Below the pieces are notes generated by a model. The model searched no databases. It saw only the letters and a list, made by a program, of their open reading frames with translations, and was not told where the DNA came from. A DNA stretch of 64,000 nucleotides, from the sequence record NC_017969.1; one strand, 5' to 3'. This document shows positions 13,304 through 27,412 of the stretch, one piece after another. The stretch's first letter is position 1, and each line of letters opens with the position of its first letter. The position numbers and the translations under genes are program-made. The DNA is from Escherichia phage vB_EcoS_AKFV33.

Positions 13304-13333
13304 TTGCAAGGGAGTATTATTTTATAGTATAAT
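13304..13333 (+). promoter_or_regulatory. T5-type early promoter (TTGCAA-18-TATAAT)
   Basis: Near-consensus elements followed by the ATAAATGAGAGA leader; it fires into a roughly 490 nt region with no convincing ORF. Confidence 0.6.
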
Positions 13334-13828
13334 ATTCCCATAAATGAGAGACATTAGTAAAAATTGATTTTGCTAATTTTTCTTGTTTACAATCCGCGAT
13401 ACGGAACAGTTAGGCTGCCCCATTAAGGGTTGTTTTAACTATTACTAGTGTTTATATTGCATTAGTTAATCTTCAATTAAGTGATCTGTGTACCCTGAAT
13501 TCGGAAAGGTAAATCCAAACCGTGCATATTTAGCTCGTTATATAGGCAGAGCTTTATATGGGGGTGCGAACGAAAAGAGCAGCGAATGGCGGCACGTACA
13601 GTAGTCACCTACCAATAGGATAGTGAGGACAAATAGAATCGGCTTAGCGGCCAATGACCTAGGTTCTATTCTGTATATGAGCGAAGAGAGCACAGCACTG
13701 AGATATGATAACTTATTCATATTGTTTGATGATAATTGATGTTTACGTAAATAGTAGTAATAGTTGTTCTATTCTTTCTGAATAGTCCTAAAGAAAAGAT
13801 TTCTATTAATCAACACAGGAGTATTGTT

Positions 13829-17868: not shown

Positions 17869-17898
17869 GTTGCTTAATCCTATAATTCTTGATATAAT
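17869..17898 (+). promoter_or_regulatory. T5-type early promoter (TTGCTT-18-TATAAT)
   Basis: Consensus hexamers upstream of the codon-optimised ORF at 17956. Confidence 0.65.
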
Positions 17899-17955
17899 AT
17901 TCTCATAGTTTGAAAGAACTATTCTGTTTAATTCTTAATTAAGGAAATATAAAAT

Positions 17956-18366
17956 ATGACTACTCCAACTCAGTGGACTGATGAACTGTTCGAAAAAATG
18001 TCTTCCGAATACGTTGCTCGTATGGAGCAATTCCCAGAGGATGAACGTCCGGGTGTTAGCATGGAAATTGTTAGCGAAATTGCCCAGGAAAATGGTGTAA
18101 CTCCGAACGGTTTTCGTATGAAGCTGACTAAAGCAGGTTTGTATATCAAGAAAGCTGCTGGCTCTGCTTCTAAATCTAGCGCATCTACTGGAGAAAAAGC
18201 TTCCGGTGGTTCTCGTACCTCCAAAGCCCAAGCTCACGCCGATCTTCGCTCAGCATTCTCTGATGCTGGCCTAGCACCAGATTTTCTGGATGATGCAATT
18301 ATCGACAAACTGACCGGTAAAGCGGCTGCTCATCTGGCAGAAGCAATCCGAGCTATCACTAAGTAA
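17956..18366 (+). CDS. hypothetical abundant early protein
   Basis: 136 aa; codon usage strongly biased to E. coli high-expression codons (CTG, CGT, GGT, AAA); own promoter. Confidence 0.55.
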   Translation: MTTPTQWTDELFEKMSSEYVARMEQFPEDERPGVSMEIVSEIAQENGVTPNGFRMKLTKAGLYIKKAAGSASKSSASTGEKASGGSRTSKAQAHADLRSAFSDAGLAPDFLDDAIIDKLTGKAAAHLAEAIRAITK

Positions 18367-21867: not shown

Positions 21868-21899
21868 AAGGGGAGGGGGCTATGCTCCTTCCCCTTTTT
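21868..21899 (+). terminator. rho-independent terminator
   Basis: AAGGGGA...TCCCCTT stem followed by TTTTT. Confidence 0.7.
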
Positions 21900-21932: not shown

Positions 21933-23405
21933 ATGACCTTGTTTAACGTGCAAGCTGTAGTGTTGAAGATGCTTCTAGCTTCCGAACAGAAGCAAATAGC
22001 ATTGGAAACATTCTCAAAACTGCATAAAGATCATTTTAATGACGCTTTCTCCTCAATTTACCAAGCCGTCCAGAATTATTATAAAAAATATAACACAATG
22101 CCGTCCATTGACGCACTTATGCTTGAAGCTAATAGGAACGCCCGCCTTTCTCAAGCTCTAGTCGTCTTAGCTAACACTCAAATTCCAGAAGTGAGCATGG
22201 AACAGGCACTTGAAGTCCTAGAGGCTGAATATACACAGGATTTATTCCTGAAGCTTCTAGAAACAGACGTGCTTCAAGATTTAACAATGCTGGATCAGGG
22301 AGAAATTCTCAACCGAGTTGCCTCCCTTCACTTAAAATTAGAAGAGAAAGTAACGAATACTGGAAAAGTATTCAACGCAGATAACATGCGTATTTTCCAG
22401 AGAGAAGAAGATACCAAACTGAACTTAATCGCTCTTGGTATTTGTAATGAGTTCGACGCTCAAATTGGTTTAGCTCGCACAGAAACGTTACTGCTTGGTG
22501 GTTGGCGTGGTACTGGTAAATCCATTATCTGTTCAAACATACAGGTTCAGCAATATTTGAATGGAGATATTGCTCCATACTTCTCAATTGAGATGAAAGA
22601 ACATGAAGTATTTAGACGTAATCTAGCCATGTTAGCCGGGGTATCAGCACTAGCAATGCGTAATAATACTCTAGAAGGTGCAGCTCTATTGAGATTAGCC
22701 AGAACTAGAGCTAGAATGTTTAATGGGGGTGAAGAGCTTTTTGATAACTTCGTTAAACAGTACACAATGGCTAAGATGAGTGATTTCTACGATATGGAGA
22801 GTAAGCTAATAGAGGGATATGAACTACATACTCCTATGATTATCGTTTATGACCCTGAACTGTCCATTACAACAGTTGACGTAGAATTAAATAAATTAGT
22901 TGCTAGATATGGTGATAAAGTTACAGTAGCTTTACTGGACTATATTAACCAAACCCGACTTCCAGATTCTAAAACCATTGATATGTATGACTGGAAAGAA
23001 CAGATGGTTGTTAGCTCGTCTTTCAAATCTATCTGCCAGAAACATAACGTGGCTGGTGTAGCTCCTTACCAGATCGATCAAGATGGTAGAACACGTATGT
23101 CAAAGGGTATTCTTGATTCCGCAGACATGGCTGCTAATCTTAATGCTGCAAAAGCTGATAATGGTCAAGGTGCTATTATGTTTGACTTCGTTAAGACTCG
23201 TTCTTCTGATAGCGTGAAGTTTATGCCTAAAATGAACTGGGAAACCTTGCGGATGGATAACACTACCAACCTAGCGATGGAAGATATATCTCAAATGGAA
23301 GCTGAGTTCGTTATCCCTATTGAGAAGGATAAGCCGGCTCAACCTAAACGTGCTAAGAAAGACAAAACCGAAAATTCAACAGGTGAACAGGCCAGCGATA
23401 TATGA
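21933..23405 (+). CDS. replicative DNA helicase (DnaB-like)
   Basis: Walker A GGWRGTGKS in the C-terminal half; directly upstream of the primase with overlapping stop and start; start uncertain (track begins at 21882 inside the terminator). Confidence 0.6.
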   Translation: MTLFNVQAVVLKMLLASEQKQIALETFSKLHKDHFNDAFSSIYQAVQNYYKKYNTMPSIDALMLEANRNARLSQALVVLANTQIPEVSMEQALEVLEAEYTQDLFLKLLETDVLQDLTMLDQGEILNRVASLHLKLEEKVTNTGKVFNADNMRIFQREEDTKLNLIALGICNEFDAQIGLARTETLLLGGWRGTGKSIICSNIQVQQYLNGDIAPYFSIEMKEHEVFRRNLAMLAGVSALAMRNNTLEGAALLRLARTRARMFNGGEELFDNFVKQYTMAKMSDFYDMESKLIEGYELHTPMIIVYDPELSITTVDVELNKLVARYGDKVTVALLDYINQTRLPDSKTIDMYDWKEQMVVSSSFKSICQKHNVAGVAPYQIDQDGRTRMSKGILDSADMAANLNAAKADNGQGAIMFDFVKTRSSDSVKFMPKMNWETLRMDNTTNLAMEDISQMEAEFVIPIEKDKPAQPKRAKKDKTENSTGEQASDI

Positions 23406-24292
23406 GTAGAATAACAGAACTACTTGATCTGAAAGGCATTGAATATAAAGACACAGGTGGGGACATCCTCATCTGTTGTCTCAATCCAGATCATGACGAT
23501 AAACACCCAAGTTTGCGTATTGATCCTGAAACAGGTATTATGCACTGCTTGAGTTGTGGCTTCGGTAAAGGTATACCGAGCATTTACCATTATTTTAATG
23601 AGACTCAGTACCGACAGTCTCCAAGACTATCGCAGGTACGTAAAAAGATTTCAGAGATTAGGAATGGATCTACAAATCTTGCAATTCCTGAATCTGCTTA
23701 CCTTTTCGAAGGTGATTTCCGAGGTATAAGTTCTAAGACCTTGAAGAAATATTTTGCTTTCCAACACCAAGCAGACTGGGAAGGCAGAATTGTATTCCCA
23801 ATCACAGATGCTGTTGGACGCAATATCCTATTTTTGGGTCGTTCTATAAACAGTTCTGCCCCTCCTAAATACTTAGTAAAACCAAAACAAGTTTCACCAC
23901 CGATTTTCCCTGTACGATATAATACTCCAGTTCTTATTCTAGTTGAAGGTATCTTTGATATGCTGAACCTAGAGGATAATGGTATAGACTATGCTTCTTG
24001 CTGCTTTGGTACACATCAGTTTACTTCAGATAACATTGCAGATAAGTTTAGCCCTTATATTATTGCTGGTGTTAAAGTTGTTGTTATCTTACTAGATAAT
24101 GATGCTTCTGGTAATAAAGCTGCACAAGCACTGGCTAAGCTAATTCGTACAAAAACGCGTTTAACACCTGTAGTTGCTAACTTTCTTCTACCTGAAGGTA
24201 AAGACCCAGGTGACTTAAATAAAGAAGAAATTGATATGTTAGCAAAACGTATTGAAATTTTAGTTGCTGAATCGCTTAAAGATTTGGTATAA
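23402..24292 (+). CDS. DNA primase (zinc finger and TOPRIM)
   Basis: 296 aa; N-terminal zinc-binding CxH...CxxC segment, TOPRIM-like EGIFD and LLDNDASG blocks. Confidence 0.8.
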   Translation: MSRITELLDLKGIEYKDTGGDILICCLNPDHDDKHPSLRIDPETGIMHCLSCGFGKGIPSIYHYFNETQYRQSPRLSQVRKKISEIRNGSTNLAIPESAYLFEGDFRGISSKTLKKYFAFQHQADWEGRIVFPITDAVGRNILFLGRSINSSAPPKYLVKPKQVSPPIFPVRYNTPVLILVEGIFDMLNLEDNGIDYASCCFGTHQFTSDNIADKFSPYIIAGVKVVVILLDNDASGNKAAQALAKLIRTKTRLTPVVANFLLPEGKDPGDLNKEEIDMLAKRIEILVAESLKDLV

Positions 24293-24354
24293 TATATTGG
24301 TAAGTTAGAGAAGAAACACTGAAGTTATACTTACTTACCAAGAGGAGATTAAAT

Positions 24355-26922
24355 TTGAAAATCGCAGTAGTTGATAAAGCCCTAAACAACACTCGTTACG
24401 ATAAACATTTCCAGCTATACGGCGAGGAAGTTGATGTATTTCATATGTGTAACGAGAAGTTATCTGGTCGTTTGCTTAAAAAGCACATTACTATTGGAAC
24501 ACCAGAAAACCCATTTGATCCGAATGATTATGATTTTGTTATACTAGTAGGTGCCGAACCTTTCCTGTATTTCGCAGGTAAGAAAGGCATTGGTGACTAT
24601 ACTGGTAAACGTGTAGAATATAATGGATACGCTAACTGGATTGCGAGTATTAGCCCAGCCCAGTTACACTTTAAACCTGAAATGAAACCAGTTTTCGATG
24701 CAACAGTAGAGAATATCCACGATATTATCAATGGTCGTGAGAAGATTGCAAAAGCTGGTGATTACCGTCCTATTACTGACCCTGATGAGGCAGAAGAATA
24801 TATCAAGATGGTGTATAATATGGTTATCGGACCTGTCGCATTCGACTCCGAAACCTCAGCACTATACTGTCGAGATGGTTATCTGCTTGGTGTTTCTATG
24901 TCTCACCAAGAGTATCAGGGTGTATATATCGATTCTGATTGTCTCACAGAGGTTGCAGTATATTATCTCCAGAAAATTCTGGATAGTGAAAACCATACTA
25001 TTGTTTTTCACAACTTGAAGTTTGATATGCACTTTTATAAGTACCATCTGGGACTTACTTTTGATAAAGCGCATAAAGAACGCAGGCTTCATGATACCAT
25101 GTTGCAACACTATGTTCTAGATGAACGTCGTGGTACTCATGGCTTGAAATCTCTAGCAATGAAGTATACCGATATGGGTGACTATGACTTTGAACTAGAT
25201 AAGTTCAAGGAGGATTACTGCAAAGCACATAAAATCAAGAAAGAAGATTTCACCTATGATTTAATTCCGTTTGATATTATGTGGCCTTACGCTGCGAAAG
25301 ATACTGATGCCACCCTACGTTTGCACAACTTCTTCTTACCAAAAATTGAGAAGAATGAAAAACTTTGTAGTCTGTATTATGATGTCCTAATGCCTGGTTG
25401 TGTATTTCTCCAGCGTGTTGAGGATCGTGGTGTACCTATTTCTATTGATCGTTTAAAAGAAGCTCAGTACCAGTTAACCCATAATCTGAATAAAGCTCGT
25501 GAAAAACTGTATACTTATCCAGAAGTCGTTCAGCTAGAGAAAGATCAGAACGAAGCGTTTAACCCAAACTCTGTTAAACAACTCCGTGTTCTTCTGTTTG
25601 ATTATGTTGGCTTAACTCCAACAGGTAAATTGACGGATACTGGAGCAGATTCTACGGATGCAGAAGCTCTGAACGAACTGGCTACGCAGCATCCAATTGC
25701 TAAGACTCTACTAGAGATTCGTAAGCTGACTAAGCTGATCTCTACTTATGTTGAGAAGATTCTTCTGAGTATTGATGCAGATGGTTGCATTCGTACTGGT
25801 TTCCACGAACATATGACTACTTCTGGTCGTCTGAGTTCTTCTGGTAAACTGAACTTGCAACAGCTACCTCGTGATGAATCTATTATCAAGGGTTGTGTAG
25901 TAGCTCCTCCTGGGTATCGTGTAATCGCATGGGACTTAACAACTGCGGAAGTTTATTATGCTGCTGTTCTATCTGGTGATAGAAATATGCAACAGGTATT
26001 TATCAACATGAGAAATGAACCTGATAAATACCCGGACTTCCACTCTAACATCGCACACATGGTATTTAAGCTCCAATGCGAACCCCGTGATGTTAAAAAG
26101 CTGTTCCCAGCTTTGCGTCAAGCAGCTAAAGCAATCACCTTTGGTATTCTGTATGGTTCTGGCCCAGCTAAAGTAGCTCATTCTGTTAACGAAGCTCTTC
26201 TGGAACAGGCTGCTAAGACAGGAGAACCGTTTGTTGAATGTACTGTTGCGGATGCGAAGGACTATATTGAAACTTACTTCGGTCAGTTCCCGCAGCTTAA
26301 GCGTTGGATTGATAAGTGCCACGATCAGATCAAGAATCATGGATTTATCTATAGTCACTTTGGTCGTAAACGTCGTCTGCATAATATCCATTCCGAAGAC
26401 CGTGGTGTTCAGGGTGAAGAAATTCGTTCTGGATTTAACGCAATCATTCAGTCTGCTTCTTCTGATAGTCTCCTTTTAGGTGCTGTAGATGCAGATAATG
26501 AGATCATTTCTCTTGGCCTAGAACAAGAGATGAAGATTGTTATGCTGGTTCATGACTCCGTAGTTGCTATTGTTCGTGAGGATTTGATCGACCAATACAA
26601 TGAAATCCTGATTCGTAATATTCAGAAAGACCGTGGTATCAGTATTCCTGGCTGTCCGATTGGTATTGATTCAGATTCTGAAGCTGGAGGTTCTCGTGAC
26701 TATTCTTGTGGTAAGATGAAGAAACAGCATCCATCAATCGCTTGTATTGATGATGATGAATATACTCGTTATGTCAAGAGTGTATTACTTGATGCAGAGT
26801 TCGAGTATAAGAAACTAGCTGCAATGGATAAAGAGCATCCAGATCATAGCAAATACAAGGATGATAAGTTTATTGCTGTATGTAAAGATTTGGATAACGT
26901 GAGAAGGATTCTCGGTGCTTGA
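24355..26922 (+). CDS. DNA polymerase, family A, with 3'-5' exonuclease
   Basis: 855 aa (the length I recall for T5 DNA polymerase); exo I motif FDSET, polymerase motif B RQAAKAITFGILYG; TTG start with a GAGGAG Shine-Dalgarno. Confidence 0.9.
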   Translation: MKIAVVDKALNNTRYDKHFQLYGEEVDVFHMCNEKLSGRLLKKHITIGTPENPFDPNDYDFVILVGAEPFLYFAGKKGIGDYTGKRVEYNGYANWIASISPAQLHFKPEMKPVFDATVENIHDIINGREKIAKAGDYRPITDPDEAEEYIKMVYNMVIGPVAFDSETSALYCRDGYLLGVSMSHQEYQGVYIDSDCLTEVAVYYLQKILDSENHTIVFHNLKFDMHFYKYHLGLTFDKAHKERRLHDTMLQHYVLDERRGTHGLKSLAMKYTDMGDYDFELDKFKEDYCKAHKIKKEDFTYDLIPFDIMWPYAAKDTDATLRLHNFFLPKIEKNEKLCSLYYDVLMPGCVFLQRVEDRGVPISIDRLKEAQYQLTHNLNKAREKLYTYPEVVQLEKDQNEAFNPNSVKQLRVLLFDYVGLTPTGKLTDTGADSTDAEALNELATQHPIAKTLLEIRKLTKLISTYVEKILLSIDADGCIRTGFHEHMTTSGRLSSSGKLNLQQLPRDESIIKGCVVAPPGYRVIAWDLTTAEVYYAAVLSGDRNMQQVFINMRNEPDKYPDFHSNIAHMVFKLQCEPRDVKKLFPALRQAAKAITFGILYGSGPAKVAHSVNEALLEQAAKTGEPFVECTVADAKDYIETYFGQFPQLKRWIDKCHDQIKNHGFIYSHFGRKRRLHNIHSEDRGVQGEEIRSGFNAIIQSASSDSLLLGAVDADNEIISLGLEQEMKIVMLVHDSVVAIVREDLIDQYNEILIRNIQKDRGISIPGCPIGIDSDSEAGGSRDYSCGKMKKQHPSIACIDDDEYTRYVKSVLLDAEFEYKKLAAMDKEHPDHSKYKDDKFIAVCKDLDNVRRILGA

Positions 26923-27412
26923 TTTCAAATTGCCCGTATATGCTTTACGGGCTTTTGTATCAATTGAGCAAGAAGGTGATTATTCCGTAATTACAACAAG
27001 ATATAATAAATATGTGCTAGATAACAGGAAGTTGCCTGGCACTTTTTCTCAACGTAGGCTTATTCTATTTGAGAAACGGAAAGAATTACCATATAAGCTC
27101 TATCCTATTAGGGGTAGAATATCAATGTTGTCTCAATTAGTTGGGTCAAAGCGTAGCCAATTTATAGATTCTGATGGAAATCTTATTAACTGGAAGAAAA
27201 CTACATTTTATGATGTTGTCACCTCTAAAGTTTTGCATTCAGCTAGAATTTATAACGGAAAATACCAATGCTATGTAGCTAAAGTTCCATATCCATTTGT
27301 ATTATCCTATGTTCCAGCTTATATAAGCTATATTCTGGTAAATAATAGCCCTGTTATTTACCAAGTCCATCAAGAGGAGCCTGAAATTCCTAGACTTAGA
27401 ATAAAATTATGA
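26915..27412 (+). CDS. hypothetical protein, atypical codon usage (possible mobile insertion)
   Basis: 165 aa; GTG start overlapping the polymerase stop; rich in AGG/AGA/ATA codons unlike the flanking replication genes; no recognisable motif. Confidence 0.45.
   Translation: MLDFKLPVYALRAFVSIEQEGDYSVITTRYNKYVLDNRKLPGTFSQRRLILFEKRKELPYKLYPIRGRISMLSQLVGSKRSQFIDSDGNLINWKKTTFYDVVTSKVLHSARIYNGKYQCYVAKVPYPFVLSYVPAYISYILVNNSPVIYQVHQEEPEIPRLRIKL

Follow-up and report, generated by a model that had tools for sequence, protein, structure and literature searches.

A leader stem-loop probably conserved at the predicted start of the DNA polymerase message in T5-like phages

Introduction

Does the inverted repeat that precedes the DNA polymerase gene of T5-like phages take part in the expression of this gene, and if so, does it act as RNA or as DNA? 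The question was examined in a stretch of 64,000 nucleotides from Escherichia phage vB_EcoS_AKFV33 (NC_017969.1; hereafter the window), which is T5-like phage sequence. Here the DNA primase ORF (24292 being its last position and 23402 its first, + strand, 296 aa), identified from the ORF list and from the annotated primase in T5 and its relatives, is followed by the DNA polymerase gene (24355–26922, + strand), which encodes a family A enzyme of 855 aa from a TTG start according to the ORF list and the annotation of relatives. The TTG at 24355 is backed by homology, as relatives have ATG at the same codon and then K-I-A-V-V-D-K. With its long leader and weak TTG start, the polymerase message is unlike most T5 early mRNAs. 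A first-pass annotation had placed a 9-bp inverted repeat over the translation start and had suggested that it could form an RNA hairpin or an operator that modulates polymerase synthesis.

Results

The repeat was found as described: TTGGTAAGT (24297–24305) and ACTTACCAA (24333–24341) are the arms of a perfect 9-bp inverted repeat separated by 27 nt, and in a repeat search the arms lengthened to 12 nt with one mismatch (24297–24308/24330–24341). It also lies upstream of the TTG and of the Shine-Dalgarno sequence GAGGAG (24342–24347, + strand), which was recognized from the sequence and is unpaired in the leader fold. It does not, however, lie over the translation start, because the right arm ends 13 nt 5' of the TTG and stops where the Shine-Dalgarno sequence begins. 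The window contained 44 perfect 9-mer inverted repeats with loops of 3–40 nt, as compared with 14.8 ± 5.0 in the first-order Markov simulations of the window that define the chance level, and thus about 15 are expected by chance. The RNA fold of 24290–24375 had an energy of −10.7 kcal/mol (z = −0.64). A 6-bp version of the hairpin was weak (−4 to −5.6 kcal/mol), and shuffled sequence folded at least as well (z = +1.18). The repeat alone is not above chance, and the case for its reality is made by the comparative data.

The left arm was overlooked in the first-pass annotation as the site of a predicted transcription start. On the + strand, a pattern scan found a −35-like hexamer TTGCTG (24264–24269), which is separated by an 18-bp spacer from an extended −10 element TGgTATAAT (24285–24293) and followed by the discriminator ATATTG (24294–24299). 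The −10 element is inside a promoter feature of the T5 record NC_005859 (70987–71061), which corresponds to 24245–24319 of the window. The register of this feature to the −10 element is the same as in the named promoters P31A and P31B, and this implies a predicted +1 at 24300. An early sigma-70 promoter, Ppol, is therefore predicted to overlap the end of the primase gene, with transcription starting at G24300; the primase stop codon TAA (24290–24292) falls within the −10 hexamer. In primer-extension experiments, Klimuk et al. (2020, PMC7472727) saw early transcripts that originate at 'Ppol'; they also found the ATATT discriminator in all T5 early promoters and observed that the Ppol 5' ends were gone after 30 min. 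Judging from its name and from the sole annotated promoter upstream of pol, the published Ppol is probably the promoter at 24264–24293. The hallmarks of a T5 early sigma-70 promoter are all seen here (−35 TTGCnn, a spacer of 17–18 bp, TATAAT, ATATT, and early kinetics), and TGn often precedes TATAAT in this class. The pattern TTGCnn-N17/18-(TG)nTATAAT persists throughout the enterobacterial and Vibrio lineages, including those with diverged flanking sequence. A second, internal promoter with TATACT at 24327–24332 was rejected, as the key A at position 2 varies and relatives have TTTACT or TGTACT.

Early promoters of the P25/N25 class in T5 consist of TATAAT, a 6-nt discriminator (for example, AGATTC or ATATAC), ATAAATT from +1, and (T)GAGAG. 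Ppol has the same −10 element, the ATATT discriminator, and the same spacing, and its left arm takes the place of the ATAAATT box (+1 to +7); together with the 5' half of the loop (GTAAGTTAGAGAAG) it makes up Ppol's form of the downstream box. Whereas the other early promoters reach the ribosome site at about +12 with no intervening stretch, Ppol has about 30 extra nt, the 3' half of which is complementary to the downstream box. Because the left arm also serves as the promoter's +1 to +7 box, the basal helix keeps its sequence instead of covarying freely.

A Ppol transcript would start with 5'-GUAAGU (24300–24305) at G24300, and these six nucleotides would pair with ACUUAC (24333–24338) to form a basal helix, which was assigned from RNAalifold and pair counts and, for the 5' strand, from the promoter comparison. 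Stacked above it would be a middle helix of GAG (24308–24310) and CUU (24330–24332), found by MFE folding and RNAalifold, and an apical helix of AAC (24315–24317) and GUU (24324–24326), found by RNAalifold and by pair counts over 14 leaders. The apical loop is ACUGAA (24318–24323); its family consensus in the alignments is A-N-Y-G-A-M, in which G and A are invariant. The first six nucleotides of the predicted transcript had a pairing probability of about 0.9. If +1 is 24300, as promoter geometry and the T5 annotation register indicate, the stem would start no more than about 2 nt into the transcript. It closes 3 nt 5' of GAGGAG, which would be left single-stranded and open to the ribosome. Because the left arm sits on the predicted Ppol start, its outer TTG (24297–24299) is upstream of the predicted +1; these three nucleotides are not conserved as pairs, and their partners CAA (24339–24341) are pairable only in read-through RNA from the primase gene. 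Among the other early transcripts in the window, two of those with long leaders have predicted 5'-terminal hairpins, and those with short leaders do not.

Two further features of the leader were considered and rejected. In one fold, with the 3' end at 24420, the ribosome site appeared to be sequestered by pairing of GGAGAU with AUUUCC at about 24405; this pairing shifted with every 3' end chosen and was inconsistent in other lineages, and was thus regarded as window-dependent. An upstream ORF was seen in Proteus phage PM135 (AGGAGG followed by a 17-codon UUG ORF) and in Providencia phage PR1 (7 codons), but a start codon is missing from this place in the T5, Sugarland-like, and Erwinia leaders, and a leader peptide is therefore not conserved.

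The two-tier hairpin is kept in the Tequinta-, Epseptima-, Sugarland-, Providencia-, Erwinia/Pantoea-, and Proteus-phage lineages. Independent MFE folds placed a hairpin between the −10 element and the ribosome site in all promoter-bearing lineages except that of leaders L038–L040, in which the ribosome site directly follows the ATATT discriminator. RNAalifold on an unbiased MAFFT alignment of the nine alignable leaders recovered 24300–05/24333–38, 24308–10/24330–32, and 24315–17/24324–26; the outer TTG/CAA pairs were absent from this consensus. When the Proteus and Pectobacterium leaders were included in the MAFFT alignment, RNAalifold gave no consensus because these rows were misaligned. A second, model-guided alignment of 14 distinct leaders was fitted to the hairpin model. 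In the nine-leader alignment 91.7% of cells were paired, compared with 30–56% when the partners were slid; in the 14-leader alignment the value was 93.4%, with six pairs changed on both sides, and the slid-partner controls over both alignments ranged from 28 to 56%. A compensatory change from C-G to U-A in the apical helix was present in 6 of the 14 leaders, and changes from U-A to U·G in the stem, which are compatible only with + strand RNA, were present in 4. In the Proteus phages the basal helix is wholly different (UUGGAU/AUCCAA) and occupies the same place. The strongest covariation comes from one lineage, in the 14-leader alignment that was fitted to the hairpin model, and most basal pairs are invariant among the GTAAGT lineages.

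Not all of the repeat is conserved to the same degree. Among the outer pairs, column 7/48 was broken in three of the nine sequences and column 5/50 in leader L003; such breaks occur in the Erwinia/Pantoea, metagenomic (L062), and Providencia leaders and in one T5-type variant. Thus, the RNA hairpin suggested by the first-pass annotation is borne out in several T5-like genera, with compensatory changes, for the inner six of the nine base pairs only. Many unpaired positions are also invariant, namely AAG (24311–24313), the loop G and A, and UA (24328–24329). The leader is a local peak of conservation: T5 and Eps7-like phages are 100% identical in the leader and 85–97% in the flanks, and for T5 and Sugarland-like phages the values are 86% and 52–76%. 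Across the 91-nt stretch, 466 of the 592 matching phage records are at least 95% identical. Hairpins unrelated to the T5 hairpin occupy the site in the Pectobacterium and Vibrio lineages; the one in the Pectobacterium phages has a stem that begins about 5 nt in from the predicted 5' end.

A covariance model of the hairpin matched nothing besides the polymerase leader in the window and in T5 1–47000, which together represent 111 kb of T5-type sequence. An Rfam scan of 23800–24900 at E ≤ 10 returned no family overlapping the hairpin, and gave a spurious snoRNA match well upstream.

Discussion

It is probable that the repeat is the base of a conserved leader stem-loop that starts at or near the +1 of Ppol. 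The conservation of the hairpin with compensatory changes, and its restriction to the polymerase leader, make it plausible that it acts in polymerase expression. The best explanation overall, which we adopt tentatively and which may be correct, is that a 5'-terminal stem-loop protects and insulates the polymerase mRNA while the ribosome site is kept free. With its 5' nucleotide paired, the transcript would be attacked poorly by RppH, which removes pyrophosphate, and by RNase E, whose cleavage is stimulated by a 5'-monophosphate. The hairpin would also lock the 40-nt leader and stop it from pairing with the ribosome site, and protection and insulation would jointly set the lifetime and translatability of the message. 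This specific mechanism of 5'-end protection and insulation is offered as a possibility, with some reserve.

The leader of E. coli ompA is an established case of protection from 5'-end-dependent decay involving RppH and RNase E. The T5 stem-loop would resemble this type in that its stem is predicted to begin no more than one nucleotide from the 5' end and leaves the ribosome site behind it accessible; pairing is conserved from the predicted +1 onward and variable 5' of it. The variant helix of the Proteus phages indicates that no particular stem sequence is needed, as in stem-loops of the ompA type. The T5 stem differs in being short and weak and in having many conserved unpaired bases, and its protective effect is a prediction. 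Invariant unpaired positions are not required of a purely structural protector, which counts against 5'-end protection, and the Pectobacterium stem, at its distance from the predicted 5' end, fits it less well. The disappearance of the Ppol 5' ends after 30 min (PMC7472727) also counts against protection, because the polymerase message is then not strikingly long-lived.

The main rival, drawn by analogy with T4 gene 43, is a translational operator, which we consider rather unlikely. The stem-loop, notably its apical loop and unpaired nucleotides, would be bound by a phage protein, either the polymerase or another early protein, and since the stem abuts the Shine-Dalgarno sequence, the bound protein would stop 30S binding and cap polymerase synthesis. 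In T4 and RB69, the gene 43 operator mediates autogenous repression by the DNA polymerase gp43, and protein binding was shown (PMC3014915). The T5 hairpin is likewise in the 5' leader of a phage replicative polymerase gene and directly against the ribosome-binding site (its stem ends at 24338, or at 24341 in the 9-bp form), with one-gene specificity and with loop nucleotides conserved among relatives (PMC3014915). Its occurrence only at the polymerase leader is expected for gene-specific control, the apical loop pattern is maintained, and the unpaired positions are invariant though the polymerases of the lineages are only about 62–78% identical to that of the window. The use of a weak start codon, TTG, points to a restrained polymerase output. 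The T4 hairpin, however, is 16–18 nt long with a -UAAC- loop (PMC3014915), whereas the T5 hairpin is 39–45 nt long, has three helices and an A-N-Y-G-A-M loop, and starts at the predicted mRNA 5' end; neither sequence nor Rfam comparison links the two. The polymerases belong to different families, T4 gp43 to family B and the T5 enzyme to family A (annotated as DNA polymerase I or family A in relatives). The invariance of the 5' half is explained as well by the +1 to +7 box and the downstream GAG motif of other early promoters, and that of the 3' half by the need to pair with the 5' half. In addition, Pectobacterium, Vibrio, and marine relatives have the same polymerase N-terminus without the T5-type leader hairpin. 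In a literature search, Klimuk et al. (2020) was the sole source located on T5 transcription-start maps, and no report of polymerase autoregulation in T5 turned up. That the leader stem-loop is an RNA operator for autogenous translational repression by the T5 family A polymerase, or by a partner replication protein, is quite unlikely.

It is also unlikely that the hairpin has no function, the complementarity being incidental between a left arm that is the initial transcribed sequence and a right arm constrained otherwise, for example as sequence context for translation initiation. The chance expectation for 9-bp repeats, the unexceptional folding energy, and the basal pairs that never vary are consistent with this, and at a second promoter the left arm recurs with no matching right arm (TTGGTATAATATATTtGTAAGTT, minus strand, 6629–6601). 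An incidental origin does not readily account for the exchange of both arms for another complementary pair in the Proteus phages, for the compensatory apical pairs and wobble-compatible stem substitutions, for the unrelated hairpins at the same site in the Pectobacterium and Vibrio lineages, or for the drop in pairing when the partners are slid.

An intercistronic element, which would act as a processing or 3'-end-stabilizing hairpin or as an attenuator or terminator, is improbable. Only polycistronic RNA reading through from the primase gene could fold into all 9 bp of the stem (11 bp in Sugarland-like phages): the TTG/CAA pairs are 5' of the predicted +1 in T5, Sugarland-like phages extend them by an added G·U, and the 9-bp stem is retained in the read-through fold. 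It is these outer pairs that are broken in the lineages named above. RNase III needs about two helical turns, and the stem is too short for it. A terminator scan found nothing at the hairpin site, where the stem is followed by AAGAGGAG and, in T5, by no U-run; the G+C-rich stem and U-run of an intrinsic terminator are seen in the Vibrio relatives only. Those phages resemble T5 in having, at the same primase–polymerase position, a promoter of the same architecture followed by a terminator-like hairpin, whose stem starts 3–4 nt after the −10 element. Their stem (GAGGUAAUUC/GGAUUACCUC) is nevertheless unrelated in origin, is far more stable (z about −4.3), has a U-run after it, and is not recognized by the T5 hairpin covariance model. 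A double-stranded DNA operator, at which a dimeric regulator on both arms would control Ppol, for example in early shut-off, is highly improbable. The arms lie 36 bp from each other, centre to centre, other early promoters have no right arm, and the conserved G·U wobbles can pair only in + strand RNA, being mismatched in DNA as well as on the opposite strand. In favour of such an operator, the left arm covers −3 to +6 of the promoter, and phage functions such as D5 shut off early transcription in T5 (annotation note in NC_005859).

The polymerase leader stem-loop is a modest addition to a familiar class of mRNA leader structures. Little is known of post-transcriptional control in T5, a classical phage model with early promoters that are common in expression vectors. 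The structure would also show that the initial transcribed box of a promoter can double as one strand of an RNA helix. Binding of the stem-loop by a protein would make it a second, independent case of phage polymerase autoregulation; autorepression, if true, would mean that an unrelated polymerase family and phage lineage had arrived by convergence at a counterpart of the T4 gp43 system, with an operator recognizable by the conserved apical loop. If it merely protects the 5' end, the stem-loop would amount to a useful if ordinary annotation and could become an Rfam family covering several hundred Demerecviridae genomes. A leader structure specific to the polymerase would provide an easily mutated handle on the level or lifetime of the replicase mRNA in T5-like phages.

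The inverted repeat upstream of the polymerase gene

The first-pass annotation placed a 9-bp inverted repeat over the translation start of the DNA polymerase gene. A perfect repeat is indeed present, with arms TTGGTAAGT (24297-24305) and ACTTACCAA (24333-24341) separated by 27 nt and extendable to 12 nt if one mismatch is allowed. The ribosome site GAGGAG (24342-24347) directly follows the right arm and the TTG start codon is at 24355, so the repeat borders the ribosome site without covering it or the start codon. Taken by itself, the repeat is not significant. The window contains 44 inverted 9-mers with loops of up to 40 nt (14.8 ± 5.0 expected by chance from first-order Markov simulations of the window), and folding 24290-24375 as RNA (-10.7 kcal/mol) gave a z-score of -0.64.

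Escherichia phage T5_ev212 shares 98% identity with the region 23900-24800, for which 439 T5-like (Demerecviridae) genomes gave matches. In these genomes, the genes on either side carry the annotations DNA primase and DNA polymerase, and the ORF listing places them at 23402-24292 and 24355-26922 (855 aa, TTG start) in the window. The homologous codon in relatives is ATG, with K-I-A-V-V-D-K after it as in the window, which makes 24355 a well-supported polymerase start. TTG is used in T5, Eps7-like, and Providencia phages, and ATG in Sugarland-like, Proteus, Erwinia/Pantoea, and Pectobacterium phages (relatives' sequences L024, L213, L212). A terminator-like hairpin (GCCCGTA...TACGGGC then TTTTG, 26932-26952) lies 10 nt past the polymerase stop codon, within the overlapping next ORF (26915-27412). 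A strong one of 13 bp with eight G-C pairs and a subsequent T-run (21868-21896) overlaps the ATG at 21882 of a 507-aa ORF, which aligns with the T5 D6 helicase and is downstream of the D5 homologue.

An early promoter at the end of the primase gene

A promoter overlooked in the first-pass annotation is situated at the end of the primase gene. It consists of a -35-like TTGCTG (24264-24269), an 18-bp spacer, and a -10 region, TGgTATAAT (24285-24293), followed by ATATT, which is found in the discriminator of all known T5 early promoters (Klimuk et al., PMC7472727). The T5 RefSeq record annotates a 75-nt promoter at 70987-71061, corresponding to 24245-24319 in the window. Its register to the -10 hexamer is the same as in the named promoters P31A and P31B, all three features beginning 48 nt ahead of the -10 end, and this common register predicts transcription to start at G24300. 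The pattern TTGCnn-N17/18-(TG)nTATAAT precedes the polymerase gene in Tequintavirus, Epseptimavirus, Sugarlandvirus, and Providencia, Erwinia/Pantoea, Proteus, Pectobacterium, and Vibrio T5-like phages, and is retained even amid diverged surrounding coding sequence. These data support a working promoter at 24264-24293. Early transcripts from a T5 promoter named Ppol were detected in infected cells by primer extension (Klimuk et al., PMC7472727). Since the promoter at 24264-24293 is the sole one annotated directly upstream of the polymerase gene, we infer that it is Ppol.

Elsewhere in the window, seven early-type promoters have in common the box ATAAATT at +1 to +7, with GAG-rich sequence after it. 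In this position Ppol has GTAAGTT and then AGAGAAG, which indicates that the left arm is the initial transcribed sequence of Ppol. A second early-type promoter, on the minus strand (6629-6601), has 22 of 23 nt in common with Ppol (TTGGTATAATATATTnGTAAGTT / TTGGTATAATATATTtGTAAGTT), and no ACTTAC partner was found downstream of it. It drives a leader of ~60 nt (6629-6535), whose internal hairpin, GAUAAACAAG...UUUGUUGAUC, differs from that of the polymerase leader.

A conserved stem-loop in the polymerase leader

The promoter and leader form a local conservation maximum. Identity of T5 there is 100% to Eps7-like phages (85-97% in flanking coding sequence), 86% to Sugarland-like phages (flanks, 52-76%), and ~70% to Providencia phage PR1 (flanks, 47-62%), and 466 of 592 matching phage records are at least 95% identical over a 91-nt stretch. 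Minimum free energy folds of each lineage gave one architecture, with a basal stem a few nt past the -10, a small apical helix, and an open ribosome site. With nine distinct leaders aligned by MAFFT, an alignment not fitted to a model, RNAalifold assigned a basal helix GUAAGU/ACUUAC (24300-24305/24333-24338), a middle helix GAG/CUU (24308-24310/24330-24332), and an apical helix AAC/GUU (24315-24317/24324-24326). When the outer TTG/CAA pairs (24297-24299/24339-24341) were included, 91.7% of cells were paired in the nine leaders, whereas slid partners gave 30-56%. The outer pairs were the weakest; column 7/48 was broken in three of nine sequences, and the outermost pair in the T5-type variant L003. 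They lie upstream of the predicted +1 and vary among lineages, and only the inner 6 bp of the repeat, beginning at G24300, are conserved. In a transcript from 24300, the first six nucleotides are paired with a probability of ~0.9.

A covariance model built from the nine leaders retrieved Proteus phage leaders, absent from its training, at E about 1e-5; these carry UUGGAU/AUCCAA in place of GUAAGU/ACUUAC. In a 14-leader alignment, which was fitted to the model and in which the basal-helix covariation comes from a single lineage, 93.4% of cells were paired (slid controls, 28-54%) and six pairs were altered on both sides. An apical C-G is replaced by U-A in 6 of 14 leaders, and U-A by U.G in four. 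The G.U wobbles are informative despite the fitting, because they pair only in plus-strand RNA and not in DNA or the opposite transcript. The left arm would serve the promoter as a box and the stem as a helix strand, which may account for a basal helix that keeps its sequence instead of covarying.

With the covariance model, the leader element scored 91 bits, and no other site in the 64-kb window or in T5 1-47000 exceeded 14.5 bits (E about 1) with filters off; the element is thus present once in this sequence, as a feature of the polymerase gene. No Rfam family matched it. The RNA hairpin proposed in the first-pass annotation stands in part: folds, consensus, and pair changes support a conserved, polymerase-specific leader stem-loop starting at or near the predicted Ppol +1, but the outer 3 bp do not belong to what is conserved. 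As far as we found, this stem-loop has not been described before; it is ordinary in kind.

Leaders of other lineages

In Pectobacterium phages, a short basal stem carries another small hairpin, GCC-CUGAUA-GGC, and in Vibrio phages the site holds a strong hairpin of unrelated sequence with a U-run after it. The latter hairpin, GAGGUAAUUC...GGAUUACCUC, at most 3 nt from the -10 (relatives L034-L037, ~1900-1990), is in effect a terminator or attenuator within the polymerase leader, and its right arm has a second possible left-arm partner in AGGTAATCC, part of the promoter spacer. In the L038-L040 lineage, the promoter and ATATT discriminator are kept with the ribosome site directly next and no hairpin, and in distant marine relatives the primase and polymerase genes are adjacent, without promoter or hairpin.

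Some T5-type genomes, ~387 bp longer, have an additional ORF of 109 aa between the two genes (metagenome contig SKEH01000150.1, L058:1078-1503; PK7; Stp1; 'Listeria phage LM 4-14-1'). For a T5-like sequence, the 'Listeria' host name suggests contamination or mislabelling. The insertion junction is at the -10, with a new TTGCTA-N17-TGATATAAT and then the unchanged leader hairpin. In Proteus phage PM135 (L213:250-320), AGGAGG-AATA-TTG opens a 17-codon ORF overlapping the polymerase start, and Providencia phage PR1 (L030:1950-1975) has a 7-codon TTG ORF; both are lineage-specific and neither is conserved in T5.

Possible role of the stem-loop

The favoured reading of the element is a 5'-terminal stem-loop that would protect and insulate the polymerase mRNA. 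This reading is suggested by the start of the conserved helix at the predicted 5' end, the wholesale replacement of the stem sequence in Proteus phages, the unrelated hairpins at the same place in other lineages, and the free ribosome site. It is also consistent with the predicted 5'-terminal hairpins of two other early transcripts with long leaders, as those with short leaders lack them. The two (plus strand, 17870-17960 and 13304-13400) open with AUAGUUU-GAAA-GAACUAU exactly at +1 and with a long stem from +2 (-20 kcal/mol), respectively. Against it stand the low thermodynamic stability of the 6-bp hairpin, the invariance of several unpaired nucleotides, and a published time course in which Ppol 5' ends did not persist notably (PMC7472727).

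A protein-binding operator would also fit an element that is specific to one gene, adjoins the ribosome site, and has invariant unpaired bases. The layout is that of the T4 gene 43 operator (PMC3014915), but the T5-type element lacks that operator's defining loop and size features and, unlike the T4 system, belongs to a family A polymerase gene; it could thus act like that operator, yet is not a member of that system. Less likely are an intercistronic element acting on transcripts reading through from the primase gene, in which the full 9-bp stem can fold with its variable outer pairs, a DNA operator, in which the wobbles would not pair, and an incidental repeat, which the repeat statistics would allow but which the exchange of both arms in Proteus phages and the compensatory apical changes speak against. 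In the favoured reading of protection and insulation, the 5'-terminal stem-loop would hinder 5'-end-dependent decay and prevent the 40-nt leader from obstructing the ribosome site.
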